This document shows positions 1 through 42,199 of a DNA stretch of 64,000 nt, piece after piece. Position 1 is the first letter of the stretch, and each line of letters begins with the position of its first letter. The DNA comes from Candidatus Acetothermia bacterium. Lineage in GTDB: Bacteria > Bipolaricaulota > Bipolaricaulia > RBG-16-55-9 > JANLFV01. The notes under the pieces were generated by a model that worked only from the letters and a program-made list of their open reading frames with translations, was not told the DNA's origin and did not search any database. The stretch lies in the NCBI GenBank assembly GCA_024653345.1, contig JANLFV010000001.1:84387-148386 (forward strand), read 5' to 3'. Made by a program: the position numbers and the translations under genes.

Positions 1-1461
1 AACCCGGTCTTCTTCCCCGATGGCCAGAGGCTCCTGTTCGCGAAGCAGCGCTGGGGCGAGCGAAGCCCGGCCTTGGCGGCCCTGGACCTCTCGACCGGTG
101 AGGAGGAGATCCTGCAGGAGTTTCCCGACGGCCTCCTTATCGACTCGTTCTCCATCTCTCCGGACGGGAGCCGACTGGCTCTCTCCATCTGGCACTGGGG
201 TGGCTTTCAAGACATCTATCTCCTGCCCGCCGCGGGCGGGGAGTTGCTCCCGATCACCCAAGACCGGGCGACCGACCTCGATCCCACTTGGTCGCCCGAT
301 GGGCGGTTCGTGGTCTTCTCCTCCGATCGCGATGGTGTCAACAATCTTTATGCCTATCGCCTCGCCGACGGCGCATTCTTCAAGGTCACGAACGTCACCA
401 GCGGAGCCTTTGCGCCCGATCTCTCACCAGATGGGCAGGAGATCGCCTATGTCGGCTACTCCGTCGAGGGCTACGACCTGCGGATCCTGGACTGCGTGCC
501 TGAATCGTGGCGAGCAGTGAGCTTCAACGACGAACCGGTGCCGGAGTGGCCCGGCTGGCCCGAGCTGGAAGGCCCGGTTCATCGCTACAGCCCTTGGCCC
601 TCGCTCCTGCCGAAGCTCTGGCTCCCGCTCATCACCCCCGACGGCATGGGCCTGTTCACCTTCGGGAGCGACTACCTCTCCCAGCACGATTACTCGCTCG
701 TCGCGGGCTACGATTGGCGGAATCGAGAACCGTTCTACACCTTCAACTACGCCTCCCGCCGGCTTGGGCCGAGCCTCTCTCTCGGCCTCGAGAGCGGCTC
801 CCAAGGGGGCCGGCAGCAACTCCAGCTCATCATCCCGGTAGTGGACAGCCTGACAGAGTCGCAAGAGCTTCTGCTCGCCTATGAGCGACGAGATGGCGAA
901 GACCTCGTCAAAGGGGCCTGGAGACTTGCGGGCCGGCAGGGGTTCGACCTCCAGCGCGAGGAGCATCGGCTCGAAGTCGAGGGCGAGCTACGGAGGACGA
1001 GCGCAGGCCCCTACCGCGGGCTCATCCTCGACTGGCGCGAGCGGCTTCGCCTGCCGCTCGAGCGCGAGAACGAGCTGGCCCTGAAACTGACCTACGGCTG
1101 GCGGAGCCCCGGCGGGGAGCTCGAGCTCGGCGGACACGAGGGCAGGTTCATGCTCCGCGGCCTCCACCGGGGCGCACTGACCGGCCCGCAGGCCTTGGCT
1201 ACCAGCCTGGAATATCGCTTCCTCATCGGGAATATCGAGCGGGGCCTCGGCCTCTGGCCGTTCTTCCTCAACTGGCTGAAGGGGAGCCTCTTTCTCGACC
1301 TGGGGATGGCCGGGGAGCGGCTGAGGGCCGGCTTCGGCGTGGAGCTGAGACCCCAGCTGATCCTCGGCTATGCCCTCCCGCTGGAACTCCGCTTCGGGGT
1401 AGCTCAAGGGCTTGGCGAGAGCCGGCCCTCCTTCTATCTGGCCCTCGGGTCGGCCTCTTGA
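1..1461 (+). CDS. C-terminal part of a large outer-membrane protein (N-terminus lies upstream of the window). It is a paralog of the 6044..8818 product and has a PD40/TolB-like beta-propeller plus an Omp85-like C-terminal beta-barrel.
   Basis: The frame is open from position 1. Repeated SPDG-x-x-[LI] PD40 motifs are present. It aligns by eye along its length with residues ~440-924 of the 6044..8818 product, including the aromatic-rich C-terminal region (FYLALGSAS here versus FYLGFGSAF there). Confidence 0.6.
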   Translation, partial: NPVFFPDGQRLLFAKQRWGERSPALAALDLSTGEEEILQEFPDGLLIDSFSISPDGSRLALSIWHWGGFQDIYLLPAAGGELLPITQDRATDLDPTWSPDGRFVVFSSDRDGVNNLYAYRLADGAFFKVTNVTSGAFAPDLSPDGQEIAYVGYSVEGYDLRILDCVPESWRAVSFNDEPVPEWPGWPELEGPVHRYSPWPSLLPKLWLPLITPDGMGLFTFGSDYLSQHDYSLVAGYDWRNREPFYTFNYASRRLGPSLSLGLESGSQGGRQQLQLIIPVVDSLTESQELLLAYERRDGEDLVKGAWRLAGRQGFDLQREEHRLEVEGELRRTSAGPYRGLILDWRERLRLPLERENELALKLTYGWRSPGGELELGGHEGRFMLRGLHRGALTGPQALATSLEYRFLIGNIERGLGLWPFFLNWLKGSLFLDLGMAGERLRAGFGVELRPQLILGYALPLELRFGVAQGLGESRPSFYLALGSAS

Positions 1462-5089: not shown

Positions 5090-5183
5090 CCCCACCAAAG
5101 CTCAAGGATAGAGGGTCGTCCGGGAGAATTCAACGCTTGGCCTGCGGGAGCCGCACTGCTAGAATTGGTTGTCGGAGCACAGG

Positions 5184-5948
5184 ATGGGGAAGAGAGAGCC
5201 GATCATCGCGGCGAACTGGAAGATGCACAAGACGGTCGCTGAGGCCCGCGAGTATGTCCGCCGCTTCCGCGAGCTGGTCGAGGGCTTCTCCGGGGTGGAG
5301 ATCGTCCTCGCCCCGCCGTTCACCGCGCTGCCAGCGGTGAGGGAGGAGCTCTGTGGGACCGCGATCGCGCTGGCGGCCCAGGACATGTGGCATGAGCCGC
5401 TGGGGGCCTACACCGGCGCGATCTCGCCCCTGATGCTCAGGGACCTCGGCTGCCAGTATGTGATCATCGGCCACTCTGAGCGCCGGGAGCACTGCAAGGA
5501 GACCGACGAACTGATCAACAAGAAGCTCCGGGCGGCCTTCGCCCATGGCCTAACGCCGATCCTCTGCGTGGGGGAGAAGCTGGAGGACCGCCGGGCCGGG
5601 TTGACCCAGGCGGTTCTGGAGAGGCAGGTCCGGGCTGACTTGGCCGGGCTGGCGAAAGGGGATGTCGCGCGGCTGGTGATCGCCTACGAGCCGGTTTGGG
5701 CCATCGGGACCGGTGAGACGGCCTCCCCCCAGGACGCCAATGAGGGGGCCAAGTTCATCCGGGCCCTCGTGGCCAAGCTCTGGGATGAGGCCACAGCCCA
5801 GTCCGCCCGGATCCAATACGGCGGGAGCGTCAAGCCCGAGAACATCGCGGCCCTGATGGCAGAAGAGAATGTAGATGGCGCCCTCGTCGGGGGGGCCTCG
5901 CTCGATCCGGCGGCCTTCGCGGAGATCGTCCGGCGGGCCAGGGGATGA
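5184..5948 (+). CDS. tpiA: Triosephosphate isomerase.
   Basis: IIAANWKMHKT N-terminus and the active-site region AYEPVWAIGTG. Start at the ATG (MGKRE) with an upstream GGAG. Confidence 0.93.
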   Translation: MGKREPIIAANWKMHKTVAEAREYVRRFRELVEGFSGVEIVLAPPFTALPAVREELCGTAIALAAQDMWHEPLGAYTGAISPLMLRDLGCQYVIIGHSERREHCKETDELINKKLRAAFAHGLTPILCVGEKLEDRRAGLTQAVLERQVRADLAGLAKGDVARLVIAYEPVWAIGTGETASPQDANEGAKFIRALVAKLWDEATAQSARIQYGGSVKPENIAALMAEENVDGALVGGASLDPAAFAEIVRRARG

Positions 5949-6043
5949 AGCGGCCCGAGCGATGACTGCTCGCAGGGCAGGCTATTGACGCTGGACCTCG
6001 ACTCTCTGTATCCTTCCATCAATCTGAGCCACAGGAGGGCCCT

Positions 6044-8818
6044 ATGCGCAGGCGGGTGATCTTCCTCGGGTTGCTGTGCGCGCTCCTCACTTCAGCGACC
6101 GCGGCCGCGCAGCTGACGCCGCCCTACGACTGGCAGATGATGGAGACCCCGCACTTCCGCATCATCTTCCATCCGGAGGTCGAGGGCCTGGCCTGTGAGG
6201 CGGCCGTGGCCGCGGAGGACGCCTATCAGCTCTGGGCCGCGGAGCTTGCCACCACTCCCCCACCCAAGACCGACATCGTGGTGATCGACTTCGACGATAG
6301 CCCCAACGGCTTCGCCGACCCATACGAGCTTCACAGCTGGGAGTTCGCCAGCCAGGTGCAATTCAGCGCCTGGTCCGGCGGGCGGGTCGCCTCTAACATC
6401 GCCGACACGATCTATCACGAGTATTGGCACATCGTCGATATCGGCAAGGTGAGCGGCCCCTCGCAGGTCCTGCGCCAGCTCTTGGGGCGGAAGGTCATCC
6501 CGAACGATCTGAAGCCGCTGTTCAACATCGAGGGCTCCGCTACCTACGGCGAGTATCTGAAATACGGCTACTCGAGGGCTAACTTCGCGACCGCGGCGAT
6601 GTATCTCCGCCAGATGGCCCTGGACAATGATTTCCCCCCGCTCGATCGCGCCGCCACCTACTTCACCAACACGCGCTGGCCGTCCCTCGGGACGCTCTGG
6701 TATCTCCTGGGCGCCTGGTTCATGCGCTACATCGAGGAAGAGCATGGCCGAGGCGTGCTGGCCAAGCTCGATGAGCTCAATGCGCGAAGCTGGTCCGCCA
6801 CGCTCTCCGCCCTCCTGGCGGACCTGCTCGCGGATCAGCTCGGCGTGGCCTTTTATGTCGGCCCCGACTTCGGGGAGTTGATGGCCCAGGCGACCGGCGT
6901 CTCGGCAAGAGAGCTCTACGAGGGCTTCCAGCAGTGGCTGAGGAGCCAAGCCCTCGAGCACCTGAGAGAAGTTGAGGCAGAGGGGATCACCTCGAGCATC
7001 CGGCTCACCTCCCACGGCTACTGGACGGCCCAGCCGAGATGGTCCCCCGACGGCCAGTGGATTGCCTACGAGCATGACGACCCCTTCCGGCTCGGCGGCG
7101 TCCGGCTCGTCCGGCCGGATGGAAGAGACGATCATCCGCTGCTTCCGGCCACTTTCGTGCTGGAAGGAGCGTTCAGTTGGTCCCCCGACGGCCGGAGGCT
7201 GGTCTACTCCAGCTACGATCGGTTCGGTCATTACTTCAGCTACAACGACCTCTACCTCTATGACCTGGAGGCAGGCAAGGCGGAGCGCCTGACTCGCGGC
7301 GCACGGGCCTATAACCCGGTCTTCACGCCTGATGGCAGCAGCATCCTCTTCGGGAAGCAGGGCCCGGGGGACCGGACCAGCCTCATGAGACTGGAGCTGG
7401 CAACTGGCGCGGTCGAGACGATCAAGGAGTTCCCGCCCGACACCTTCCTCGACTTCTTCGCCCTCTCTCCCGACGGACGGCGGCTGGCCCTCTCGATCTG
7501 GAAGCGCCCGGGCTTCTCCGACCTCTATCTCATGTCGGCCACCGGCGGGGGACTCCAACCGCTCACGCAAGACCGGAACGAGGACCTCCGGCCCACATGG
7601 TCGCCAGACGGCGAGTATGTGCTGTTCGACTCGATCCGGGACGAGACATTCAACGTCTACGCGGTCCACATCTCCGATCGGAGCTTCTTGCGCGTGACCA
7701 ATGCGGTCTCCGGGGCCTCTGCTCCCACGATCTCCCCGGACGGGAAGAGGATCGCCTTCATCGGCTACAGTAGCCGAGGCTACGACCTCCACCTGATGGA
7801 CTTCGACCCCACCAGCTGGAAGGCGGTTAGCTTCCCGTCGGAGTCCATCCCCTCCTGGCCCGGCTTCCCCGAGGTCGATTACCCCGTCCGGCCCTATGAT
7901 CCGTCCCAGACGATGAGGCCGAAGTATTGGGAGCCAGCGCTCTATGGGACCCGACTCGGCGCGCGCACCTCCGCTTGGGACGCACTCTACCGCCGGTCCT
8001 ACTTCGCCGAGGCTGGCTACGACTGGTCACAGCGCGGGCCGTTCGCCTCCCTCTCCTACACGGACTCGGAGCAGCTCTCGCCCCTGGTCTTGAGCCTCAG
8101 CCTCGACCTCTTGCCCTACGGCAACGCCGAGCAGCTGTCACTGGAGTATTGGCCGCTCGAGGGATTCTATCAGTCCCAGCGGCTCTCGCTGGCGGTGGAA
8201 CGAGCGGAGTCCGCGAAGTTGGCCTACAGCCTCTCCGCTGCGTGGGACGGCTTCGCACTCCTCGGAAAGGACCTCTTCTGGCAGGAGCTCGAGGCTTCAC
8301 TTGGCACCTCGCTTTACTACGACACCGAGACGGGGGAGTGGAGTCGCGAGGCAGTCCTCGAGCTCAGGGACTACCTCCACCTTCCGGTGATCGATCTTGC
8401 TGGGCCGCACGAGCTGGCGCTCCGGTTGGCAGCGGGCTGGAGCGATCGCGAGGGGAACTTCGCCTTGGGCGGGACCAGTGGGCAGTTCCTCCTCCGCGGC
8501 CAGCCGGATGGCGTCCTGGAAGGGAGCTTGATCGCCGGCACCAGCATCGAGTATCGCTTCCCATTGCTCTCCCTCGAGAAGGGCTGGGGCTTGAGGCCTC
8601 TCTTCCTTGACGACCTGCGCGGGGCGCTCTTCGCCGATGCCGGGCTGGCGGGGGACCGGCTGCCGACGCTCGCCGAGCTGAAGGCCGGCTATGGCCTGGA
8701 GCTCCAGCTGCTCTTCACCACGGGGTTTGGCGTGCCGCAGGCGCTCAGCCTCGGCGTGGCTTACGGGCTGGGGCAGCCCGAGCCAATCTTCTATCTCGGC
8801 TTCGGCTCGGCCTTCTAG
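6044..8818 (+). CDS. Large outer-membrane protein with a signal peptide, an HExxH zinc-peptidase-like N-domain, a PD40 (TolB-like) beta-propeller and an Omp85/BamA-like C-terminal beta-barrel.
   Basis: Signal peptide MRRRVIFLGLLCALLTSATAAAQ. The motif IYHEYWHIVD (HExxH) lies in the N-domain. At least six PD40 repeats (WSPDG/LSPDG/ISPDG). The C-terminus GYGLELQLLFTTGFGVPQALSLGVAYGL...FYLGFGSAF resembles the Omp85 barrel closing strands with a terminal Phe. Confidence 0.6.
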   Translation: MRRRVIFLGLLCALLTSATAAAQLTPPYDWQMMETPHFRIIFHPEVEGLACEAAVAAEDAYQLWAAELATTPPPKTDIVVIDFDDSPNGFADPYELHSWEFASQVQFSAWSGGRVASNIADTIYHEYWHIVDIGKVSGPSQVLRQLLGRKVIPNDLKPLFNIEGSATYGEYLKYGYSRANFATAAMYLRQMALDNDFPPLDRAATYFTNTRWPSLGTLWYLLGAWFMRYIEEEHGRGVLAKLDELNARSWSATLSALLADLLADQLGVAFYVGPDFGELMAQATGVSARELYEGFQQWLRSQALEHLREVEAEGITSSIRLTSHGYWTAQPRWSPDGQWIAYEHDDPFRLGGVRLVRPDGRDDHPLLPATFVLEGAFSWSPDGRRLVYSSYDRFGHYFSYNDLYLYDLEAGKAERLTRGARAYNPVFTPDGSSILFGKQGPGDRTSLMRLELATGAVETIKEFPPDTFLDFFALSPDGRRLALSIWKRPGFSDLYLMSATGGGLQPLTQDRNEDLRPTWSPDGEYVLFDSIRDETFNVYAVHISDRSFLRVTNAVSGASAPTISPDGKRIAFIGYSSRGYDLHLMDFDPTSWKAVSFPSESIPSWPGFPEVDYPVRPYDPSQTMRPKYWEPALYGTRLGARTSAWDALYRRSYFAEAGYDWSQRGPFASLSYTDSEQLSPLVLSLSLDLLPYGNAEQLSLEYWPLEGFYQSQRLSLAVERAESAKLAYSLSAAWDGFALLGKDLFWQELEASLGTSLYYDTETGEWSREAVLELRDYLHLPVIDLAGPHELALRLAAGWSDREGNFALGGTSGQFLLRGQPDGVLEGSLIAGTSIEYRFPLLSLEKGWGLRPLFLDDLRGALFADAGLAGDRLPTLAELKAGYGLELQLLFTTGFGVPQALSLGVAYGLGQPEPIFYLGFGSAF

Positions 8819-8827
8819 GAGGTGACG

Positions 8828-9940
8828 ATGACAAAGGTGCTGCTTCTGGCGATGGTCCTAGGGATCTTGGTGGTGGCGCTCGTCCCGCGCGGGCCGACAC
8901 TGCGGTTCATCGGGGCCTACTCGATCCCCACGGACGAGTGGTCCTTCGGGACGATGCCGGTCGGGGAGCTATCCGGGCTCGCTTACGATCGAGCGAAGGA
9001 TATCTACTACGCCATCAGCGATGATCGGGGGGACACGGGCACCCCGGGCAGGCTCTATACTCTGCGAATTACGCTAGATCAGCGAGGGATTCACGCTGTT
9101 CAAGCCTGCTGCGTCACCTTCCTGGACAGCGATGGCAGCACTTCGGGCCTCCAGCCCTATCCCGCCAAGGGGCTGGATCCCGAGGAGGTGGTCCTCACCC
9201 CTCAGGGGACTTTAGTGATTTCCTCCGAGCGGGATCTGGACGGCCGCCCCTGGATCCGCGAGTTTGCGCTCGATGGTTCCCTCCTTGGGGAGATCCCGAT
9301 CCCCGAGAGGTTCATGCCCTCCCAGGGCAAGGGCGTGCGGAACAACCTCGCCTTCGAGGGCCTGGCGCTGACCCCGGACGGGAAGACCCTCTTCACCATC
9401 AACGAGCAGGCGCTGGCCCAGGACGGCCCGCTCGCGACCGTCGAGCACGGGACAACGGTCCGGCTGAGCCGATACGATCTGAGCGGCCCGCACCCGAGCG
9501 TCGTCGCGGAGTATCCCTATGTGACCGAGCCGATCTTCGCCCCGCCTCAGGGGACTTACGCGGACAACGGCGTCACGGCCATCCTCTATGTGAAGGAGAT
9601 CCTGCCGCGCTACGAGCTGCTCGTCCTCGAGCGGGCCTTCTCTGAGGAGATAGGGAACGACATCAAGCTCTTCGCCGTCCGCCTCGCGGGAGCGGAGGAT
9701 GTCAAGGGCCTCCCCTCCCTCCCCTTCCCCTTCACCGGGAGGGCGGTGGAGAAGACCCTTCTCCTGAGGATTTCAGCGCTGAAGAGCCTCTCCGATCTCC
9801 CGGTCAGGCCGGACAACATCGAAGCGCTCGCCCTCGGGCCGCGGCTGAAGAACGGCCACTACACCCTCATCCTAGCGAGCGACAACAACTTCAATCAGGA
9901 CCAGACGAACCTCTTCCTGGCCTTCGAACTTGTGCCCTGA
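8828..9940 (+). CDS. Secreted protein with a phytase-like esterase domain (esterase-like activity of phytase family).
   Basis: N-terminal TM/signal segment (MTKVLLLAMVLGILVVALV). The GELSGLAYD...YYAISDDRG motif region is typical of the phytase-like beta-propeller family. It is co-directional with the upstream gene at a 3-10 nt gap, with AGGAGG before the ATG at 8828. Confidence 0.45.
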   Translation: MTKVLLLAMVLGILVVALVPRGPTLRFIGAYSIPTDEWSFGTMPVGELSGLAYDRAKDIYYAISDDRGDTGTPGRLYTLRITLDQRGIHAVQACCVTFLDSDGSTSGLQPYPAKGLDPEEVVLTPQGTLVISSERDLDGRPWIREFALDGSLLGEIPIPERFMPSQGKGVRNNLAFEGLALTPDGKTLFTINEQALAQDGPLATVEHGTTVRLSRYDLSGPHPSVVAEYPYVTEPIFAPPQGTYADNGVTAILYVKEILPRYELLVLERAFSEEIGNDIKLFAVRLAGAEDVKGLPSLPFPFTGRAVEKTLLLRISALKSLSDLPVRPDNIEALALGPRLKNGHYTLILASDNNFNQDQTNLFLAFELVP

Positions 9941-9948
9941 CCGTCAGT

Positions 9949-10890
9949 TCAGTTGTGATAGACCTTCCCCTGGAGGCGGTAGTCTCCGCTCGCCGACCTG
10001 ATGTAGGCCGCCTTGACGCAGGCCGCCTTCTCCTCGCTCGCCTGAACGAGGAAGGTGAACTCCGGGCCGACGGGGGCCGCGACCTTCGCCTCGCCTCTCT
10101 CGAGGATCGCGCTGAGGTAGAGGTAGTTCGGGGCGGTCACCAGGGCCAGGAGCGCGGGCCCGAGCAAGCTCACCGCCAGGCTACCGAGGCCGGCCTCCTT
10201 CACCGCAAAGGCGCCGGGAAGCTCGATGATCGTCGCTCCTGAGCCGACGGCGATGTCGAGCGCCCGCTGGGAGGGGAGCTTCTCGCAGTCGACAGAGACA
10301 TTGAAGCCGAAAGAGGCCCCCGGAACGGCGACCGGCGCCGCCGGCGGCTGGGGCGGAGTGATGAGCTGAAAGAGGAGGTAGAAGACGGAGGCCGGGGGAG
10401 CGAAGAGGCTGACCGATGTGACGACGAAGGCGGCGAGCTCCCCGGAGCGGCGACCGGCCAGGGTGATGACCACAGGGTTTCCATAGACGACGATCCCGTA
10501 TTCCCCGGCGAAGTCCCTCCCTCGAAGGAGTACCCCCTCAGGGACGGTGATCGTTCCATAGACGATGTGCGAAGGCTGCCCCAGTGGGAGGGTCATGAGG
10601 CTCCAGGCATCCTGGAAGATCGTCCCGACGAGGCCGGTCGAGGAGCGGACCTCGCCGATTGGCACTCCCTTATCGAACTCCGCGGCCAGGGCCGCACCCG
10701 GCCTCAGGCCAGTCCTGCTCGTGAACTCCTGCTCTCGCTCGCCGAAGCCTGGGTCGTCGGGAAAGAGGACCGTCATGCCCGCGCTGACCGAGACGGTCTG
10801 AGCCGGGGCTTCCGTTTCGAGCCCGCCGGTGCCGATCAAGACCATCAGCGAGAGGAGACCTGCTGCTATGACCAGGCGCTTTCGCATCAA
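9949..10890 (-). CDS. Hypothetical secreted protein.
   Basis: Clear signal peptide MMRKRLVIAAGLLSLMVLIGTGG. No recognisable domain. Convergent with the upstream phytase-like gene. Confidence 0.4.
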   Translation of the reverse strand: MMRKRLVIAAGLLSLMVLIGTGGLETEAPAQTVSVSAGMTVLFPDDPGFGEREQEFTSRTGLRPGAALAAEFDKGVPIGEVRSSTGLVGTIFQDAWSLMTLPLGQPSHIVYGTITVPEGVLLRGRDFAGEYGIVVYGNPVVITLAGRRSGELAAFVVTSVSLFAPPASVFYLLFQLITPPQPPAAPVAVPGASFGFNVSVDCEKLPSQRALDIAVGSGATIIELPGAFAVKEAGLGSLAVSLLGPALLALVTAPNYLYLSAILERGEAKVAAPVGPEFTFLVQASEEKAACVKAAYIRSASGDYRLQGKVYHN

Positions 10891-11076: not shown

Positions 11077-11808
11077 GTGAGCGCGGCAGCAGACCCGCGG
11101 CGTCCGCCAGACGCTGAGCACCCCAAGGTCTCCATCGTCATCCCCGCCCGGAACGAGGGCGGGGAGATCGAGGCGTGCCTGAAGAGCCTGATGGCCCAGA
11201 GGTTTCGCGACTTCGAGATCCTGGTAGTGGACAACGGCTCGACTGACGATACTGAGGCGATCGCCCGCCGCTACGGCTGCCGCGTGGTCCACGAGGCCCG
11301 GCCGGGGGTGGCCTTCGCCCGGCAGCGCGGGTTTGAAGCGGCCCGCGGGGAGATCATCGCCTCGACCGACGCCGATACGACCCTCCCGCCGGACTGGCTG
11401 GAGCTGATCGTCCGCTCCTTCGGGGAAAACCCCGACCAGGTCGGAGTCTTCGGGAAGATCCTCCTCCGCGGGCGGCAGGGGTTCGGGCAGTGGCTGGCGG
11501 AGTTCCTCTTTACGCTCTTCCTCAGGCTGAACTCCCTCCTCGGCCGGCCGCACTTCTGCGGCCCGAACTTCGCTGTCCGGCGGACGGCCTTCCACCGCGT
11601 CGGGGGCTTCAAGAATGGTGACCGGTTCTACACCGCCTCCGAAGACCTCCAGCTCTCCCTCAAGCTCGCCCGGGAGGGCTACATCCTCTTCCACCGAGAG
11701 CTCGTGGCCTACTCCTCCTCGCGGAAGCTGAGCGGCGGCTCGCTCCGCTACATCTGGGAGCACACCAAGAACTACTGGTCGGTCGCCTGGCTCCGCCGGA
11801 CGAGATGA
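11077..11808 (+). CDS. Family 2 glycosyltransferase (GT-A fold); GTG start.
   Basis: VSIVIPARNEG...ILVVDNGSTDDT...STDADT motifs, including a DxD-like DAD. Confidence 0.8.
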   Translation: MSAAADPRRPPDAEHPKVSIVIPARNEGGEIEACLKSLMAQRFRDFEILVVDNGSTDDTEAIARRYGCRVVHEARPGVAFARQRGFEAARGEIIASTDADTTLPPDWLELIVRSFGENPDQVGVFGKILLRGRQGFGQWLAEFLFTLFLRLNSLLGRPHFCGPNFAVRRTAFHRVGGFKNGDRFYTASEDLQLSLKLAREGYILFHRELVAYSSSRKLSGGSLRYIWEHTKNYWSVAWLRRTR

Positions 11809-12476
11809 TTGCCCTCCTCCTGAAGATAGTCGGCCTCTTCGTCTTCCTGCCGATGGAGCTGATCGCCAGGTCAGTCCGGCTCGAGGTCCAGGGGCGGGAG
11901 CACATCCCGGAAGGGGGCTACATCCTCTGCCCGACCCATGTGGGGGAGCTCGACCCTTATTTCGTCCGTCGCGCTCTCGGGGAGCGGTGGGCCTTCAAGG
12001 GGCGGAATCGGTTCCTCTTCCGGCTCGAGTTCGGCCTCTGGGTCCGACGGCTCTTCCTCGCCTACTGGGGCGGCTGGATTCTCGAGGAGTCTGGCCCGAA
12101 CCTTCCGGCCCTCCGCGGGGCCTTGGCCTGGCTAGCCCGCGAGCGGCCGGTGACGATCTTCCCCGAAGGGCACCAGCACGGCCAAGGGCTGATCTACAGC
12201 GGCGCGGCCTTCCTCGCCTGCCGCTCGGGCAAGCCCCTCCTGCCGCTAGTCATCGACCGCGGGGTCTTCGTCGGGGAGGGAACGCCTTTCTATGTTTTCC
12301 CCTTTCTCGTGCTCCGCCGCTATCGCCGCGCGGCACCGCGAGTCAAGCTCACCTTCCTCGAGCCGCTCCGCCCTGATCTCGAGCGGTATCGCCGTGAGGG
12401 GCGGGAGTATCTCCAGTCCCTCTCCAGGGAGTTGGGCCGAAGGCTCTTCGGCCAGGAGCTGGAGGTGGTCGGATGA
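11805..12476 (+). CDS. Lysophospholipid acyltransferase (PlsC/LPLAT family).
   Basis: HX4D motif in CPTHVGELDP and a later FPEG motif. Its ATG overlaps the stop of the glycosyltransferase gene. Confidence 0.7.
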   Translation: MIALLLKIVGLFVFLPMELIARSVRLEVQGREHIPEGGYILCPTHVGELDPYFVRRALGERWAFKGRNRFLFRLEFGLWVRRLFLAYWGGWILEESGPNLPALRGALAWLARERPVTIFPEGHQHGQGLIYSGAAFLACRSGKPLLPLVIDRGVFVGEGTPFYVFPFLVLRRYRRAAPRVKLTFLEPLRPDLERYRREGREYLQSLSRELGRRLFGQELEVVG

Positions 12477-12577
12477 TCAGGATTCCTGCGGGTGGAGTTG
12501 CCCGGCTCGAGCGCATTTGGTATGGTTGAGTTCACTTCAGCGATCTAGAGGAGACCGTCCGTAGGCAGGCTCGGGCT

Positions 12578-14215
12578 GTGAATAAGGTGGCAGTCTTCGC
12601 GCTGGACGGGGCGACCTTTGCGGTCATCCGTCCGGCTGTGGAGCAGGGTGAGCTCCCTCATCTTGGGGCGCTCCTGGAGAAGGGCGCTTCGGGCGAGCTG
12701 GAGAGCACGATCCCTCCCATCACCGGGGCGGCTTGGACGACCTTCCAGACGGGGGTCAACCCGGGGAGGCATGGGGCCTTCGATTGGCTGACCCGTGAGG
12801 AGGGGAGCTATCGCCTCCGGCCGATCAGCTCGCAGATGCTCCGCCAGCCCCGCCTCTGGGACTTCATCGGGCAGCAGGGCGGGAGGGTCTGCGTCCTCGG
12901 CGTGCCCGTCACCTACCCGCCGCGGGCCGTCAACGGCTGCCTCATCTCGGGAATCCTCACCCCCGAGGGGGCAGACTATACCTATCCCCCGGAGTTGGGC
13001 CGCGAGCTGGAGGCGCGCGTGGGGAAGTTCCCCTTCCAGCCGGAGCACTGGCGGGGCCGCTCCCGGGCTCGAGAGTGGCTGGCAGAGCTCAAGCGGACGA
13101 TCGAAGCGCGGAAGAAGATCGCCCAGTATCTGCTGCGCAGGACTGACTGGGACTTTTTTATGCTCCACCTCATGGAGCTCGACTCGGTCCAACACCAGAT
13201 GTGGCACCTCCGGGACGGGGTCACAAGGCCTCGGTATAGGGTTAGCGTCGAGGGAGACCCGATCCTCGAGATCTACCGCGCCGCTGACCTGGCGCTCGGG
13301 GAGTTGATGGCTGAACTGCCTCGCGGGACAACCGTGTTCGTCATCTCCGATCACGGCTTCGGGCCGCTGCATTGGAACATCTACCTCAATACATGGCTCC
13401 TCGAGGAGGGCTATCTCGTCCTCAAGCGGGGGTTGAGGACCGGTTTGAAGCGGGCGGCCTTCCGGCTCGGGCTGACTCAAGAGAGGCTCTTCCCCTGGGC
13501 TGAGCGGCTCCGGCTCTTGGAGCGGGGGGCCCAGCTCCGCCACGGCCAGCTTCACGATCTGCTCGGGCGGTTCTTCCTCTCCCTCGAGGATGTGGATTGG
13601 CAGCGGACTAGGGCCTATTCGTATGGCAACATCGGCCAGATCTATCTCAACCGGCGGGGGCGGGAGCCCGAGGGAGTTGTGCAAGAGGCGGAGGCCGAGG
13701 AGCTGATCGAGGAACTGCTGGGGAAGCTAAGAAAGCTCGCTAATCCCTATACCGGTGAGCCGGTGATCGAGCGGCTCTATCGGAAGGAAGAGCTCTATTC
13801 CGGAGAGAGCCTGGCTCAGGCAGCGGAGATCCTCCTTCTCCCCCGGCGGGGATGCATGATCTTAGGGACGACCGACTTCGCCGCAGCGCGGGTTGTGGCG
13901 CCCACCTTCGCCGGCTCGGGGTGGCATGAGCTCCTCGGGGTCCTCATCGCCGCGGGCGAGGGGCTGGCCCGGGGCCAGGTTGAGGGGGCCCGCCTGCTCG
14001 ACATGTGCCCGACGATCCTCTATGCGATGGGCCTGCGCATCCCCCGTGGCCTGGACGGGCGCGTGCTGGAGGAGCTCTTCCGCGAGGATTATCGGCGGAG
14101 CCAGCCGCTGGAGTGGTTTGCGGAGGAGGTAGAACTTGCCCTCGAGGTCGAGGAGGAGGGCGAGGGATGGGAGGAGGAGGCCCGGCGACGGCTCCAGGAT
14201 CTCGGCTACATCTGA
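12578..14215 (+). CDS. Alkaline-phosphatase-superfamily enzyme (type I phosphodiesterase/nucleotide pyrophosphatase family).
   Basis: N-terminal FALDGATF and the nucleophile region STIPPITGAAWTTFQTGVNPGRHG. Later DHGFGP metal-ligand motif. 545 aa. Confidence 0.65.
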   Translation: MNKVAVFALDGATFAVIRPAVEQGELPHLGALLEKGASGELESTIPPITGAAWTTFQTGVNPGRHGAFDWLTREEGSYRLRPISSQMLRQPRLWDFIGQQGGRVCVLGVPVTYPPRAVNGCLISGILTPEGADYTYPPELGRELEARVGKFPFQPEHWRGRSRAREWLAELKRTIEARKKIAQYLLRRTDWDFFMLHLMELDSVQHQMWHLRDGVTRPRYRVSVEGDPILEIYRAADLALGELMAELPRGTTVFVISDHGFGPLHWNIYLNTWLLEEGYLVLKRGLRTGLKRAAFRLGLTQERLFPWAERLRLLERGAQLRHGQLHDLLGRFFLSLEDVDWQRTRAYSYGNIGQIYLNRRGREPEGVVQEAEAEELIEELLGKLRKLANPYTGEPVIERLYRKEELYSGESLAQAAEILLLPRRGCMILGTTDFAAARVVAPTFAGSGWHELLGVLIAAGEGLARGQVEGARLLDMCPTILYAMGLRIPRGLDGRVLEELFREDYRRSQPLEWFAEEVELALEVEEEGEGWEEEARRRLQDLGYI

Positions 14216-14224
14216 GGTAGCGCT

Positions 14225-15232
14225 GTGAAGACAGTGGCCCTGGTCGCCTCGGTGATCGTCGGCCTGGGGATCCTTGCGGCGATCCTCTACTATGTCGGCT
14301 GGCAAGGGATCGCGCGCGAGATCTACCAGCTCGGCTGGCTCGGCTGCCTCGCCCTGGCCGGTAACTACCTCCTCACCTTCTTCTTCTGGGGCCTCACCTG
14401 GCGGATCATCCTGAGATCCTACGAGATCGACGCCCCCTGGCGCGCGGTCCTGCGGGCCCTCGTGAGCGGCTACACCGTGAGCTATCTCACCCCCTCGATG
14501 TATTTCGGCGGGGAGCCGGTCCGGGTCTATGTCTTCTCCAAGGAGATCGGCCTCCCCCAGCCCCGCCTCTACGCCACGGTCTTTGTGACCAAGCTCCTGG
14601 AGGCGGTCAGCTTGATCCTCTTCGTCCTCCTCGGCGTCTTCTACGCGCTCTTCGCCGGGGGGAACCTCTCGGAGATCCAGCGCCAGTCGCTCTTCTACGG
14701 CGCGATCATCTTCAGCTTCTGGGTCTTCTTGGGCGTCTTGAACTTCACCCTGAACCTCGGGCTGGCAACGCGCCTGCTCCGGGGGCTCCGCCGCCTCCTC
14801 CCCTGGAAGGGGCTCCTCGTCAAGGCCGAGGAGAAGGTAGCGGAGGTCGAACGGGAGATCAGGCAGGCCTTCCATCAGGGCTCCAAGCTCCCCGCCACGG
14901 CCCTAGCGCTGCTCACGAGCTTCGCCGCCAACTTGCTCATCTACCTCCGCCCGCAGATCTTCTTCTACTTCACCCAGGAGAGGCTCTTCTCGCTCGCCAA
15001 CCTCTCCCTCGTCTACGCCCTCTCGGTTATCGTGGCCTCCCTCTTCTGGATCACTCCCGGAGGGATCGGGATCGCCGAGGGCGGCTGGATCGGGATCCTC
15101 ACGCTCGTAGGGATCGGGAAGGCAGGAGCGGTGGCCTTCGCCCTGATCCTGAAAGGCTTCGAGTTGACCTTCGTCATCGTGGGGATATCATTATTGATGG
15201 AGTTCGGCGTGCACCGTCGCTGGAGGAGGTGA
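14225..15232 (+). CDS. Integral membrane protein of the lysylphosphatidylglycerol-synthase TM-region / flippase-like family (UPF0104).
   Basis: About 8 TM helices with the conserved GGxxxxxEG-like segment (PGGIGIAEGGWIG). This family is typically found beside GT2 genes. Confidence 0.6.
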   Translation: MKTVALVASVIVGLGILAAILYYVGWQGIAREIYQLGWLGCLALAGNYLLTFFFWGLTWRIILRSYEIDAPWRAVLRALVSGYTVSYLTPSMYFGGEPVRVYVFSKEIGLPQPRLYATVFVTKLLEAVSLILFVLLGVFYALFAGGNLSEIQRQSLFYGAIIFSFWVFLGVLNFTLNLGLATRLLRGLRRLLPWKGLLVKAEEKVAEVEREIRQAFHQGSKLPATALALLTSFAANLLIYLRPQIFFYFTQERLFSLANLSLVYALSVIVASLFWITPGGIGIAEGGWIGILTLVGIGKAGAVAFALILKGFELTFVIVGISLLMEFGVHRRWRR

Positions 15233-15236
15233 GGCG

Positions 15237-16172
15237 ATGGCCCGATCTATCTTGGCAGCTCTCGTCCTGCTCCTGGCCCTCTCCGGGTTGGCAAGAGCCG
15301 ACTCGCTGACCGTAATCCTGAACGGTGGCGAGGGCGGGGAGAGCCTACTGTGCGGACTAGCCCAGGACTCCTTCCTGATGGAGTATCGTCTGGCGTTCGC
15401 TAGCCCCGGGCTCAGGGAGATCGAGCTCGGCCTCCGCCCGCCGCTGGCCCCCATCCGCCGCTTGGGCATGGAGTTTCAGCCCTACCTGATGGTCAACCCC
15501 GCCCGGGGCTTGACCGCCGGCCTCTTCGCCGAGAGGATAGAGCTCTCGGGCCTGGCCTACCTGGCGACGCTGACGGACTTGGCCTTCTCCAACCGGGGCG
15601 TGATGTTCTTCCTCAAGGGCGAGTATGCCGTGGGGAACATCGGCCTCCGCGGCCACCTCCAGCTCGACTGGGGCCGGCTGGCCGTCCAGCCCTGGGCGGG
15701 GAGGCTGAAAGAGCCATACTTCCCGGAATGGGCCCTCCTCACCACCGCCAGCCGTCGCTCCGGCTACCTCCCCAACTCCAACCTCTACATAGAGATCCGC
15801 AGAAGGTTCTCCACCAATCTGACGCTCTCCGAGGGCTTCGCCACCCCGCTCGGCAGCTCGCAGCTCGTCCCGGCCATCTTGCTGAACGCCGAGGTGGGGA
15901 GCTTGGCTCTCCGCCTCCTCCGCCAATTCCCCCAAGAGCTAGGGGAGGCCTTTACCCTGATCTCGCTCGGCTTCCGCCAGGGAGTCCTCTACACCCCGGA
16001 GCAGAAAAGAGCGGCGATCGTCCAGCTCGACCTCCAGTTCCGCTGGTTCCCCCAACGGGTGGAGGTCGATCTCCTCTCGAGCTACACCACCGCGGAGTTC
16101 GCCATCCAGAGCGAGAGCCACCTGACCTCGGAGGGCCTCTCCTACAGCCTCAGCCTCGAGGTGGGCTTCTGA
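15237..16172 (+). CDS. Hypothetical secreted protein, possibly an outer-membrane beta-barrel.
   Basis: Signal peptide MARSILAALVLLLALSGLARA. Alternating hydrophobic pattern and a C-terminal ...SLEVGF ending in Phe. Confidence 0.4.
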   Translation: MARSILAALVLLLALSGLARADSLTVILNGGEGGESLLCGLAQDSFLMEYRLAFASPGLREIELGLRPPLAPIRRLGMEFQPYLMVNPARGLTAGLFAERIELSGLAYLATLTDLAFSNRGVMFFLKGEYAVGNIGLRGHLQLDWGRLAVQPWAGRLKEPYFPEWALLTTASRRSGYLPNSNLYIEIRRRFSTNLTLSEGFATPLGSSQLVPAILLNAEVGSLALRLLRQFPQELGEAFTLISLGFRQGVLYTPEQKRAAIVQLDLQFRWFPQRVEVDLLSSYTTAEFAIQSESHLTSEGLSYSLSLEVGF

Positions 16173-39471: not shown

Positions 39472-42195
39472 ATGCGGAGGATACTCTTGCGTGCGGTGCT
39501 CCTAAGCGTGCTGACCCTGTTACTTTGCGGGGCAGCCTTGGGACAGGGGGGAGGTCGGATCCCCGTAGGCGAACATCCGCGCTCCATCGCCGTGCTGGAC
39601 TGCAATCGGGATGGGTGGGATGACTTTGTCGTGGGCAACGAGCTCTCCAACGATATCACCATAGCCGTTGCTCAAAGGAACGGCTTTTTTCAGGTAACAA
39701 CTCTGCCGACCCCGGCGATCATCCCCATGGCTACCGCGGCTGGTGATTTGGACTCTGATTCCGACAAAGATCTGGTCCTAGTGGCCTGCGGACTCGCTGT
39801 TGAGACAGCTCACTCCGAGGTTACGGGCGTCTATGTCACTAAGGCGTTCAACGTGTTCACCTTTGAGAACAACGGTAGTTGCGGTTTCTCTCTTAAACAT
39901 AAGCTCCGGGCTGGGGATTGTCCCAGCGCGGTCGCTCTCGCTGACTTGAATCGGAATCACAAGCTGGACATCATCGTAGTTAACTCTGAGTCAAGGAGTC
40001 TCACGCTCTTCATCGACGTCACGGGAATACCACCGGTAGAAGTGAGCCTTGCGGATTGTGCACAGCCAGTGGCCTTGGATATCGGGGACATCAACCGCGA
40101 TGCTATACCCGATGCCGTCGTCGCCTGCTCCGAATCTGACACGGTCTGGGCTCTCCTAGGGACCGGTGCTCCTCCTTTCTTCGTTCTTCCTCCTGCTCAG
40201 GTCATCGCTACTGGAGAACGGCCGATGGACGTGGAGCTCGCTGACATCAATGGTGACACTATTCTGGACCTAGTCGTGGCTCACTTCGAGTCCGACAAGG
40301 TATGGACCTTCTTCGGGGATGGGACGGGGCTCTTTGGCGATGCTACTCTCCAGAACAGCCGTATCGCTGCCGGCAGCTTTAAGAAAGGCCAGCCCCACGC
40401 CACGTATCATGTCGATCAGGCCCCCTCCGCTTTGCTCCTTCGGGACTTCAATCAGGACGGAATGCTGGACATGGTCGTGACAAATGCCTATGCTGACGAC
40501 GTTTGGCTCCTCTGCGGAAGGCACGATGAGAGGAGCAACAAGGGGGATTTCGTATCGGGAGGCAAGTGGCCCGTTGGCGAGAAGCCCGTAGCTCTAGCCT
40601 CGGGCGACTTCGACGCCGTCCGTGACGGCTGGCTCGATATAGTCGTAGCTAATGAGCTCTCCAATGATGTGAGCATCCTCCTAGGAAGGCCGAGAGAATG
40701 GTGCTACGAATTCCTTCCGCCGCCAGAGAACAAGCCGCCGGTCGCGGACTTCAGCTACTCCCCCGCTCAGCCGAAGGCCGGGGAGAAGGTGAGGTTCGAC
40801 GGCTCCTCCTCCAGCGACCCCGACGGCCAGGTCATCTCCTGGAGCTGGGACTTCGGCGACGGGAAGACCGGCACGGGGAAGATCGTCGAGCACACTTTCG
40901 AGAAGGAGGGCCAGTATAAGGTCTGCCTCACGGTCAAGGACGACAAGGGCGCGGAGGGGCAGGCCTGCGAGGACCTTACTGTCGGGCCTCCGCCGCCCCC
41001 GCCAGCGACCAAGCTGCCCACGGTCGGGGACGAGCCGAGCGGGCTGGCCTCGGGTGACTTCAATGGCGACAGGAAAGAAGACCTGGCCGTAGTGAACCAG
41101 AACTCGAACAACCTCTCGGTCCTCCTCGGGAGCGGGGACGGCAAGTTCAGCCCTGGCGGGACGGTCGCCACAGGCAGGGGCCCGAGCGCCGTCGTCTCTG
41201 CAGACTTCAACAAGGACAATCAGCTCGATCTGGCCGTGAGCAACGCTGGCTCGAACACCGTCTCGATCCTCATCGGCGACGGAAAGGGCGGATTCCACGG
41301 CCGGGGCGAGCTTGCGGTGGGGAGCAATCCCATGGGCCTGGCCTTCGAGGACTTCGACAAGGACGGGAAGCTCGACCTGGCTCTGGCCAACTCCGGGGCC
41401 AACAATGTCTCGATCCTGCTCGGGAACGGGGACGGAAGCTTCAAGGAGGCCCGGAACACCGAGCCGATCGGGAACTCGCCGGAGAAGCTGGCCCCGGCCG
41501 ACCTTAATGGTGATGGGAAGGTCGATCTGGCCGTAGCAAGCCTCAACTCCGGGGAGATCTTCATCCTGCTTGGCAACGGCGACGGGACCTTCGCAGTCGG
41601 GACCAAGCTTGCCGGCCTCAACCATCCTCGCGGCCTGACCATCGACGACTTCAACAACGACGGTAAGAAGGACATTGCCGTCGCGGTCTCCGATGCCAAC
41701 ACGGTAGCCCTCTTCTTGGGGAAGGGGGACGGGAGCTTCGAGGAGCCGCTCTCGGCCAAGGTCGGGGACTCCCCAAGGACGCTGGTGGCCGGGAAGTTCA
41801 ATGCCGACGCCAACCTCGATCTGGCCGTGGCAAACTACACCTCCGGCAATGTCTCGATCCTGCTGGGCAAGGGCGACGGCTCGTTCGAGGAGCAGAAGCT
41901 CTTCAAGGTAGGTGAAAAGCCCAATGGGATCGTGGCCGGGAAGTTCAACGCCGATGCCAATGTCGATCTAGCCGTGGCAAACGCCGGCTCGGACAACGTC
42001 ACAATCCTGCTCGGGAAGGGGGACGGGAGCTTCGAGGACCCGCCGCTCAGCTTCATAGGGAGCGCCTGGAGCGGGGTGCTCGTCGGGGGCCTGGGCTCGC
42101 TAGTCTTCTTCCCTCTCCTGCTCTGGCTCTGGGCGCTCTGGACGAGTGACGACCGCCGGAGGGCCCTCTGGGCTAAGCTCGGCCTGAGGAGGTGA
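39472..42195 (+). CDS. Large cell-surface protein with N-terminal and C-terminal blocks of FG-GAP/VCBS-like repeats, a central PKD domain and a C-terminal TM anchor followed by an Arg cluster.
   Basis: Signal peptide. Recurrent ~65 aa units ending D[LI]xVxNxxSN[DN]VSILLG (integrin-alpha FG-GAP-like). PKD motif WSWDFGDG. C-terminal LVFFPLLLWLWALW then DDRRR. Confidence 0.7.
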   Translation: MRRILLRAVLLSVLTLLLCGAALGQGGGRIPVGEHPRSIAVLDCNRDGWDDFVVGNELSNDITIAVAQRNGFFQVTTLPTPAIIPMATAAGDLDSDSDKDLVLVACGLAVETAHSEVTGVYVTKAFNVFTFENNGSCGFSLKHKLRAGDCPSAVALADLNRNHKLDIIVVNSESRSLTLFIDVTGIPPVEVSLADCAQPVALDIGDINRDAIPDAVVACSESDTVWALLGTGAPPFFVLPPAQVIATGERPMDVELADINGDTILDLVVAHFESDKVWTFFGDGTGLFGDATLQNSRIAAGSFKKGQPHATYHVDQAPSALLLRDFNQDGMLDMVVTNAYADDVWLLCGRHDERSNKGDFVSGGKWPVGEKPVALASGDFDAVRDGWLDIVVANELSNDVSILLGRPREWCYEFLPPPENKPPVADFSYSPAQPKAGEKVRFDGSSSSDPDGQVISWSWDFGDGKTGTGKIVEHTFEKEGQYKVCLTVKDDKGAEGQACEDLTVGPPPPPPATKLPTVGDEPSGLASGDFNGDRKEDLAVVNQNSNNLSVLLGSGDGKFSPGGTVATGRGPSAVVSADFNKDNQLDLAVSNAGSNTVSILIGDGKGGFHGRGELAVGSNPMGLAFEDFDKDGKLDLALANSGANNVSILLGNGDGSFKEARNTEPIGNSPEKLAPADLNGDGKVDLAVASLNSGEIFILLGNGDGTFAVGTKLAGLNHPRGLTIDDFNNDGKKDIAVAVSDANTVALFLGKGDGSFEEPLSAKVGDSPRTLVAGKFNADANLDLAVANYTSGNVSILLGKGDGSFEEQKLFKVGEKPNGIVAGKFNADANVDLAVANAGSDNVTILLGKGDGSFEDPPLSFIGSAWSGVLVGGLGSLVFFPLLLWLWALWTSDDRRRALWAKLGLRR
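41785..42078 (+). repeat. Near-identical tandem duplication (2 x 147 nt, 49 aa units) inside the FG-GAP gene.
   Basis: The two units (VAGKFNADANLDLAVANYTSGNVSILLGKGDGSFEE.. and VAGKFNADANVDLAVANAGSDNVTILLGKGDGSFED..) are far more similar at the DNA level than the other repeats. Coordinates are approximate to within 5 nt. Confidence 0.4.
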
Positions 42196-42199
42196 CTCC

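Follow-up and report, generated by a model that had tools for sequence, protein, structure and literature searches.

A WD40-like Omp85 protein with a zinc-peptidase-like head domain in a Candidatus Acetothermia bacterium

Heinz & Lithgow (2014, Front Microbiol 5:370; PMC4104836) divided Omp85/TpsB proteins into ten subfamilies, including one designated 'WD40-Omp85' or 'WD40-like'. Table S2 of that study gives architectures of PF07676 with or without PF01103 for the WD40-like members, and Table S3 gives the best structural match per member: BamA (4k3b) or TamA (4c00) for the barrel, TolB (2w8b or 2ivz) for the WD40 region, and 1z5h, 4kxd, 4fgm, 4ar1, or 3qnf for an aminopeptidase region. UniProt entries such as H1XQ58, D0MEQ5, and A9FGN9 are listed as members. 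In the portions of the main text that we drew on, only the propeller is discussed, and it is likened to a BamA-BamB fusion; the peptidase-like head is covered by no more than one column of Table S3. Hanson et al. (2024; PMC11116518) still included the WD40-like subfamily in their list of those 'not well characterized'. Here we describe a 924-amino acid protein encoded at 6044..8818 on the + strand of a window of 64,000 nt (the whole stretch of DNA analyzed) from contig JANLFV010000001.1 of a Candidatus Acetothermia bacterium. Taken as a whole, the protein is best explained, with somewhat better than even confidence, as an outer-membrane-anchored, periplasm-facing, propeller-gated zinc peptidase belonging to the WD40-like Omp85 subfamily.

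As the subfamily is set out in the text and tables of PMC4104836 used here, the 924-residue protein is a further member of it, and the assignment rests on a shared architecture and overlapping taxa. The two have in common the order of an aminopeptidase-like N-terminus, a TolB-like PD40/WD40 propeller, and an Omp85 barrel without POTRA domains; PF07676 repeats with or without PF01103; and an occurrence that includes Myxococcales, Rhodothermus, and Gemmatimonadetes-type diderms. A Foldseek search with the head also returned structures of the aminopeptidase kinds given in Table S3, including 3qnf and 4fgm. In contrast, no Bipolaricaulota or Fraserbacteria are named in the passages and tables of PMC4104836 covered here. 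A preliminary description of this DNA had taken the architecture to be undescribed; it has in fact been catalogued since 2014, with barrel, TolB, and aminopeptidase columns in Table S3. Neither Pfam nor NCBIfam holds the three-domain architecture as a named family.

Domain architecture

The open reading frame (ORF) runs from an ATG start at 6044 to a TAG stop codon at 8816-8818, and a ribosome-binding site (AGGAGG), read from the sequence at 6029..6034 on the + strand, lies 8 nt 5' of the ATG. In the translation, residues 1-23, MRRRVIFLGLLCALLTSATAAAQ (6044..6112, + strand), read as a Sec signal peptide, for which AlphaFold2 predicted a helix and then a stretch of low confidence at residues 17-24. 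A regular-expression search detected no lipobox in the N-terminus. By these features the 924-residue protein is Sec-exported.

A full-length AlphaFold2 model, for which an alignment of 65 diverse homologs was the input, showed three domains with a mean pLDDT (predicted local distance difference test score) of 92.8 and a pTM (predicted TM-score) of 0.90. The best 50 Foldseek matches of the whole model were all to the propeller, and the N-terminal domain was therefore modelled separately. In the following, motif counts out of 114 refer to full-length homologs, and invariance counts out of 65 refer to diverse homologs. Judging from the models, the three-part protein is real and consists of a zinc-peptidase-like head, a TolB-type propeller, and a BamA-type barrel.

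The C-terminal domain (residues 630-924; 7931..8818, + strand) was identified as a 16-stranded Omp85-type beta-barrel from the AlphaFold2 model and its motifs. In the model, the L6 loop comprises 28 residues (801-828) between strands 11 and 12 and carries R818-G819, which was invariant in 65/65 homologs and aligned with LRGY of 9ccg and LRGL of 8xnb; the residue following RG was Tyr or Phe in 52/65. Strand 12 contains E836-Y-R-F-P, and strand 13 contains F863-A-D865-A-G867, an FxDxG motif that was present in similar form in 110/114 homologs. The barrel ends in ...GFGSAF with F924 as the terminal residue, and a C-terminal Phe or Tyr was found in 109/114. Apart from L6 and L7, the modelled extracellular loops are only 2-6 residues long.

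The family profile matched BamA (8xnb) with an E-value of 1.9e-13, and PF01103 was matched by nine of 17 family barrels (best E-value, 9e-10); single-sequence scans against NCBIfam and Pfam gave only weak Omp85 and Deinococcus-type BamA matches. Homology to Omp85 is thereby established at the profile level, and on these scores the barrels of the Bipolaricaulota/Fraserbacteria clade are too divergent for the Pfam Omp85 threshold. The barrel that the preliminary description had placed at the C-terminus was confirmed by its 16 modelled strands, L6 RG, FxDxG, C-terminal Phe, and profile-level BamA match. The searches with hidden Markov models (HMMs) that it had proposed for both ends of the protein gave a divided result: the family profile found BamA, but the barrel alone remained below the PF01103 threshold and the head matched no Pfam or NCBIfam model.

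Between the head and the barrel, a six-bladed TolB-type PD40 beta-propeller (residues ~327-595; 7022..7828, + strand) is followed by a linker (residues ~596-629; 7829..7930, + strand) that is conserved and was modelled with high pLDDT. The linker carries the motif PYxPxxTxxPxxWxP, in which Y618 is invariant and P626 near-invariant. It is not a POTRA domain: the Pfam scan gave no PF07244 match, and residues 596-629 of the AlphaFold2 model showed neither a beta-alpha-alpha-beta-beta pattern nor other POTRA-like secondary structure. Both the six-blade propeller and the replacement of POTRA, as initially proposed, were borne out, and the missing POTRA is to be expected because the portions of PMC4104836 used here recognize non-POTRA Omp85 subfamilies. 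TIGR02800 scored 126.5 bits against a cutoff of 343 and matched the propeller region only, and Pfam gave no TolB_N match in the 924-residue protein; orthology with TolB of the Tol-Pal system was rejected on these grounds.

S9 and Tricorn peptidases were also among the propeller matches. These propeller-gated enzymes act on oligopeptides, as would be required if the barrel were a passive channel and a periplasmic peptidase with its propeller trimmed oligopeptides for uptake, and the barrel, with its very short extracellular loops, might be less capped than that of BamA. However, the L6 RG lock and FxDxG, which close Omp85 barrels, are conserved, and no peptide-transporter linkage was seen in the contexts examined; we consider peptide scavenging improbable.

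Putative zinc site of the head domain

The head (residues 24-322; 6113..7009, + strand) was assigned as a gluzincin-like (M1/M9-like) zinc-peptidase domain on the basis of invariant columns, the domain model, and Foldseek. Its sequence IYHEYWH occupies residues 123-129, with HEYWH at 125-129, and HExxH was kept in 113/114 homologs. H125, E126, H129, E163, E170, and R178 were invariant in 65/65 homologs sharing 26-30% identity with the query, and Y220 was near-invariant (59/65). The distance from the second His to E163 is 34 positions (HExxH-X33-E) in this protein and in 65 of the 113 homologs that carry the motif; most of the remaining ones have 36-41. The commonest motif variant, found in 37/113, was HEYTH, which we take to be the motif of M9 collagenases. 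E163, the candidate third zinc ligand, lies within an 'xEGxAxxxE' helix (the 'EG' motif). The third-ligand helix of M1 enzymes is NEGFA, which the helix of the head appears to resemble, and Y220 seems to lie at about the distance of the M1 catalytic Tyr. The head would thus carry a complete-looking zinc site consisting of HExxH, Glu163, and the conserved Glu170 and Tyr220.

The domain-only model of the head had a pLDDT of 87.6. A Foldseek search of this model against the PDB retrieved M1 aminopeptidases (IRAP, ERAP1, APN, and PepN), the M1-like protein TAF2, and the peptidase domains of the clostridial M9 collagenases ColH and ColG, with a probability of 1.00, E-values of ~1e-5, and TMq values of 0.45-0.54; over the M1/M9 catalytic domains matched, E-values ranged from 9e-6 to 2e-4 and TMq values from 0.39 to 0.54. 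TAF2 was the top match; ERAP1 (3qnf), 4fgm, and collagenases were also among the matches. When residues 24-322 were scanned with Pfam and NCBIfam, no model reached threshold, and a profile of the N-terminal domain returned nothing meaningful from PDB sequences; some family members gave weak Pfam matches, to zincins only (M48, M9, and BSP). The zinc ligand pattern and the modelled thermolysin-like fold fit the gluzincins of clan MA(E). The zinc-peptidase head that had been proposed from IYHEYWH was therefore upheld by its gluzincin-like fold in Foldseek and by the invariance of the candidate third ligand.

We rejected membership in the M1 aminopeptidases, since the GxMEN motif was found in 0/120 homologs, the spacing is X33 rather than X18, and the Pfam scan gave no match of PF01433 to the head. 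Because GxMEN is absent from all 120 homologs, the sequences suggest that the head is an endopeptidase rather than an M1-type exopeptidase.

The same residues bear on whether the head is catalytic at all. If the zincin-like head were a binding module only, the protein could be a non-catalytic BamA/BamB-like assembly factor that inserts outer-membrane proteins, in line with the BamA-BamB-like platform proposed in the parts of PMC4104836 considered here. The barrel does retain the Omp85 motifs L6 RG and FxDxG, and the protein at the top of the Foldseek list, TAF2, is an inactive M1-like scaffold. Inactive zincin homologs usually lose HExxH or Glu residues. In this family, the conservation pattern indicates that the catalytic-type residues of the head are under strict purifying selection; HExxH, E163, and E170 show strict invariance from phylum to phylum even at 26-30% identity, a signature of retained catalysis that speaks against the role as a mere scaffold put forward in 2014. 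Moreover, the occurrence of 2-4 paralogs per genome fits enzymes of differing specificity better than an essential insertase. We regard a non-catalytic assembly factor as unlikely.

Distribution, topology, and proposed function

A homolog search yielded more than 1,140 relatives, nearly all of 900-1050 amino acids with a matching layout. Several are annotated as 'TolB protein' or 'PD40 domain-containing protein', although the 924-residue protein, unlike TolB, has no TolB N-terminal domain. When an HMM of the head domain was searched against 1.84 billion representative proteins, 10,633 matches had E<=1e-3. Of these, 3,141 reached E<=1e-30, which corresponds to over 3,000 clusters formed at 50% identity, and the top matches were mostly proteins of 900-1050 amino acids. 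To judge from these lengths, the head is essentially confined to the three-domain fusion, which suggests that the three domains work as one unit. The clusters are distributed over many diderm phyla, and species-representative carriers were found in Bipolaricaulota/Acetothermia, Fraserbacteria, Latescibacterota, Gemmatimonadota, Rhodothermales, Cytophagia, KSB1, and Neomarinimicrobiota.

The window itself contains a second copy, paralog 1, at 1..1461 on the + strand, where translation in frame +1 gives the C-terminal 486 amino acids and the N-terminus lies off the window. The preliminary description had reported this copy as collinear with the C-terminal part of the 924-residue protein, and this was substantiated by a longer JGI contig, the upstream part of which completes paralog 1 to 911 amino acids; it is 44% identical to the 924-residue protein end to end, has the same three-domain architecture, and carries the motif HEHGH. 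A local HMM of the family barrel matched paralog 1 with an E-value of 1.5e-74, and the two paralogs were its only matches in the 64-kb window.

Related loci were searched with a closer alignment of 13 sequences. Metagenome-assembled genomes (MAGs) of Bipolaricaulota and Fraserbacteria contained 2-4 copies each: four loci were found in one Acetothermia MAG (L014, L015, L031, and L068), three in another (L018, L022, and L039), and two apiece in a pair of Fraserbacteria MAGs (L010/L016 and L011/L013). The motif separates two paralog clades, HE[YF]WH and HEYGH/HEHGH. P0001, a protein identical to the 924-residue protein, carries the annotation 'hypothetical' in a MAG labelled Candidatus Acetothermia, whereas the closest species-representative relatives (65-67% identity; L010 and L011) are labelled Candidatus Fraserbacteria, so that the taxonomy assigned to the source MAG may be imprecise.

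As diderms, Bipolaricaulota and Fraserbacteria are atypical (PMC6092417; bioRxiv 2025.11.21.689855; bioRxiv 2021.05.31.446380). The outer membrane of the host lineage is toga-like and lacks lipopolysaccharide (LPS), and the C-terminal barrel would anchor the protein in this membrane. The head and propeller would be held in the periplasm beneath the barrel, as POTRA domains and the enzyme domain of PlpD are. This placement has reasonable support from the model and from analogy: as in BamA, strands 11 and 12 flank the RG loop, which should put the beginning of strand 1 on the periplasmic side; the short linker is ordered and conserved, and no lumen-spanning element was predicted; and PlpD, the sole Omp85-enzyme fusion tested, keeps its enzyme in the periplasm. 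In PlpD this location was determined experimentally, and the export of folded domains was judged energetically unfavourable (PMC11116518). The shortness of the extracellular loops likewise suggests that the functional mass of the protein is N-terminal. TolB-type propellers are periplasmic modules, which also favours a periplasmic head and propeller.

These observations bear on the surface-exposed protease suggested in the preliminary description. For such a protease, the barrel would export its own head and propeller in a type V-like manner, and the enzyme would degrade extracellular proteins for nutrition. A route through the barrel would call for elements that the protein does not have, as there is neither a POTRA domain nor a predicted lumen-spanning helix or extended segment, and the linker at 596-629 is compact, conserved, and modelled with high confidence. 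With the BamA strand parity, the periplasmic enzyme domain of PlpD, and the periplasmic nature of TolB-type propellers also standing against it, a surface protease has become less likely, and we give it little credence.

In the outer-membrane-anchored, periplasm-facing peptidase that we favour, the head would be an active zinc endopeptidase, and the propeller, like those of the Tricorn and S9 peptidases, may limit which substrates reach it or feed them in. The substrates would be envelope polypeptides at the outer membrane and, speculatively, stalled or mis-assembled beta-barrel proteins caught at the Omp85 seam. Extended to the subfamily, this would make the WD40-like Omp85 proteins single-chain outer-membrane proteases whose seam captures unfolded or stalled beta-barrels and hands them to a periplasmic gated peptidase, a generalization to which we assign only a low probability. 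The family would have diversified to 2-4 paralogs in Bipolaricaulota and Fraserbacteria, which bear a toga and lack LPS and in which the usual BAM (beta-barrel assembly machinery) lipoproteins and periplasmic quality-control proteases may be missing.

Several points weigh against the peptidase reading that we favour. PF01103 matched the whole protein with an E-value of only 0.023, and the C-terminal part scored 19.7 bits, below the gathering score of 24. A single-sequence phmmer search of the C-terminal 313 amino acids against the PDB gave chance matches only and no BamA. Residue 820 (window 8501-8503), which follows the RG of L6, is Gln and not aromatic in this protein and its closest relatives (8/65 homologs). 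No conserved neighbourhood that might give a functional clue was found across nine loci, the neighbours varying by lineage, and a literature search found no functional or experimental study of any WD40-like Omp85 member. The idea of outer-membrane-protein quality control is purely speculative and built on analogy.

The 924-amino acid gene itself is a routine member; the family as a whole is a worthwhile experimental target. The subfamily, recognized in 2014, is large and is one of the few Omp85 branches fused to a seemingly active enzyme. To this our analysis adds the invariant zinc-site residues, an M9/M1-like head without the aminopeptidase motif, and several divergent paralogs in the deep-branching Bipolaricaulota/Fraserbacteria. 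If the enzyme acts on outer-membrane proteins, the family would provide a compact model for protease-coupled outer-membrane quality control.

Genomic context and comparison with known systems

The gene order at this locus is paralog 1, EamA, an NHL-like gene (- strand), mnmG (- strand), tpiA, paralog 2 (the 924-residue protein), and a Phytase-like gene. The last (8828..9940, + strand; PF13449, E-value 4.9e-72) starts at an ATG at 8828 in the JGI gene call, leaving a gap of 9 nt. With the shared strand and a ribosome-binding site overlapping the stop codon, this close spacing is what would be expected if the 924-residue protein and the phytase-like esterase formed one machine, the former, for example, processing or anchoring the latter. 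The operon proposed in the preliminary description is supported to that extent, but the linkage was not conserved elsewhere. No phytase-like neighbour was present at four other Bipolaricaulota/Fraserbacteria loci (P0003, P0013, P0015, and the 952-amino acid copy in L008) or at three distant homolog loci. The paralog 2 orthologs P0003 (67%), P0013, and P0015 (53% identity) instead follow an MgsA/RarA-type AAA gene; in another MAG two paralogs lie 4.3 kb apart in a different context again; and the three distant homologs have no neighbours in common with each other or with the window locus. A related MAG (L004) has an ortholog of paralog 1 with matching neighbours, but there the Phytase-like gene comes immediately after tpiA. 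The Phytase-like gene is thus probably co-transcribed with the 924-amino acid gene here, yet it is not a conserved partner; since no neighbours are conserved, the adjacency is, on this gene-order evidence, lineage-specific and incidental, and members of the family behave as stand-alone genes. The functional operon was rejected for this reason, and we consider it very improbable.

Comparison of L004 (12449-14351) with the window (5169-9940) showed that the 924-amino acid gene is missing between tpiA and the Phytase-like gene in L004. As the two genes are adjacent there, the 924-amino acid gene appears to have been relocated or inserted between them in the source lineage. Upstream of the window (L001, 1139-2686), paralog 1 is preceded, with a 4-nt overlap, by a gene for a 515-amino acid protein with NosD/beta-helix and thioredoxin-like (Thioredoxin_4/DSBA) parts, which is missing at the orthologous position in L004.

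The Phytase-like gene is followed directly on its 3' side by a convergent 313-amino acid ORF (9949-10890, - strand; 312 amino acids in the JGI call) that gave no Pfam match in two independent look-ups. Beyond it, a tight + strand cluster at 11077-16172 encodes, by Pfam label, a GT2 glycosyltransferase (11077-11808), an acyltransferase (11805-12476), a Phosphodiest/ENPP-type enzyme (12578-14215), and an LPG_synthase_TM protein (14225-15232), followed by an unannotated 311-amino acid gene (15237-16172). The cluster looks like a membrane-lipid/glycolipid modification locus and may have a bearing on the lineage's outer membrane, which lacks LPS. Farther along, at 39472-46020, are genes for three large, apparently secreted or surface repeat proteins with FG-GAP and PKD (907 amino acids, + strand), VWA and PKD (628 amino acids, + strand), and Lamin-tail and five PKD domains (645 amino acids, - strand).

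Compared with known systems, the head shares with the M1/M9 gluzincins a thermolysin-like fold, HExxH, a later Glu in an 'EG' context, and Foldseek E-values of ~1e-5; it differs in its X33 spacing against the X18 of M1, the lack of GxMEN, sub-threshold Pfam M1/M9 scores, and a length of only ~300 residues. The barrel has the strand parity of BamA, with the long RG-bearing loop between strands 11 and 12, but the protein differs from BamA and TamA in having no POTRA, very short extracellular loops, and an enzyme and propeller at its N-terminus, at an identity of ~19%. Like PlpD and other patatin-like Omp85 proteins (PMC11116518), it carries an enzyme N-terminal to an Omp85 barrel; PlpD, however, combines a lipase with one POTRA and dimerises, whereas the 924-residue protein combines a zinc-peptidase-like domain with a propeller and has no POTRA. 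Finally, BepA is an M48 protease that docks on BamA (PMC13478230; PMC13655028), and the 924-residue protein might, speculatively and by analogy, be a single-chain counterpart of BAM plus BepA. The likeness, a zinc metalloprotease positioned on the periplasmic side of an Omp85 barrel, is no more than an analogy of function: BepA, a distinct M48/TPR protein, is neither fused to the barrel nor homologous to the head, whereas here peptidase-like head, propeller, and barrel are parts of one polypeptide.

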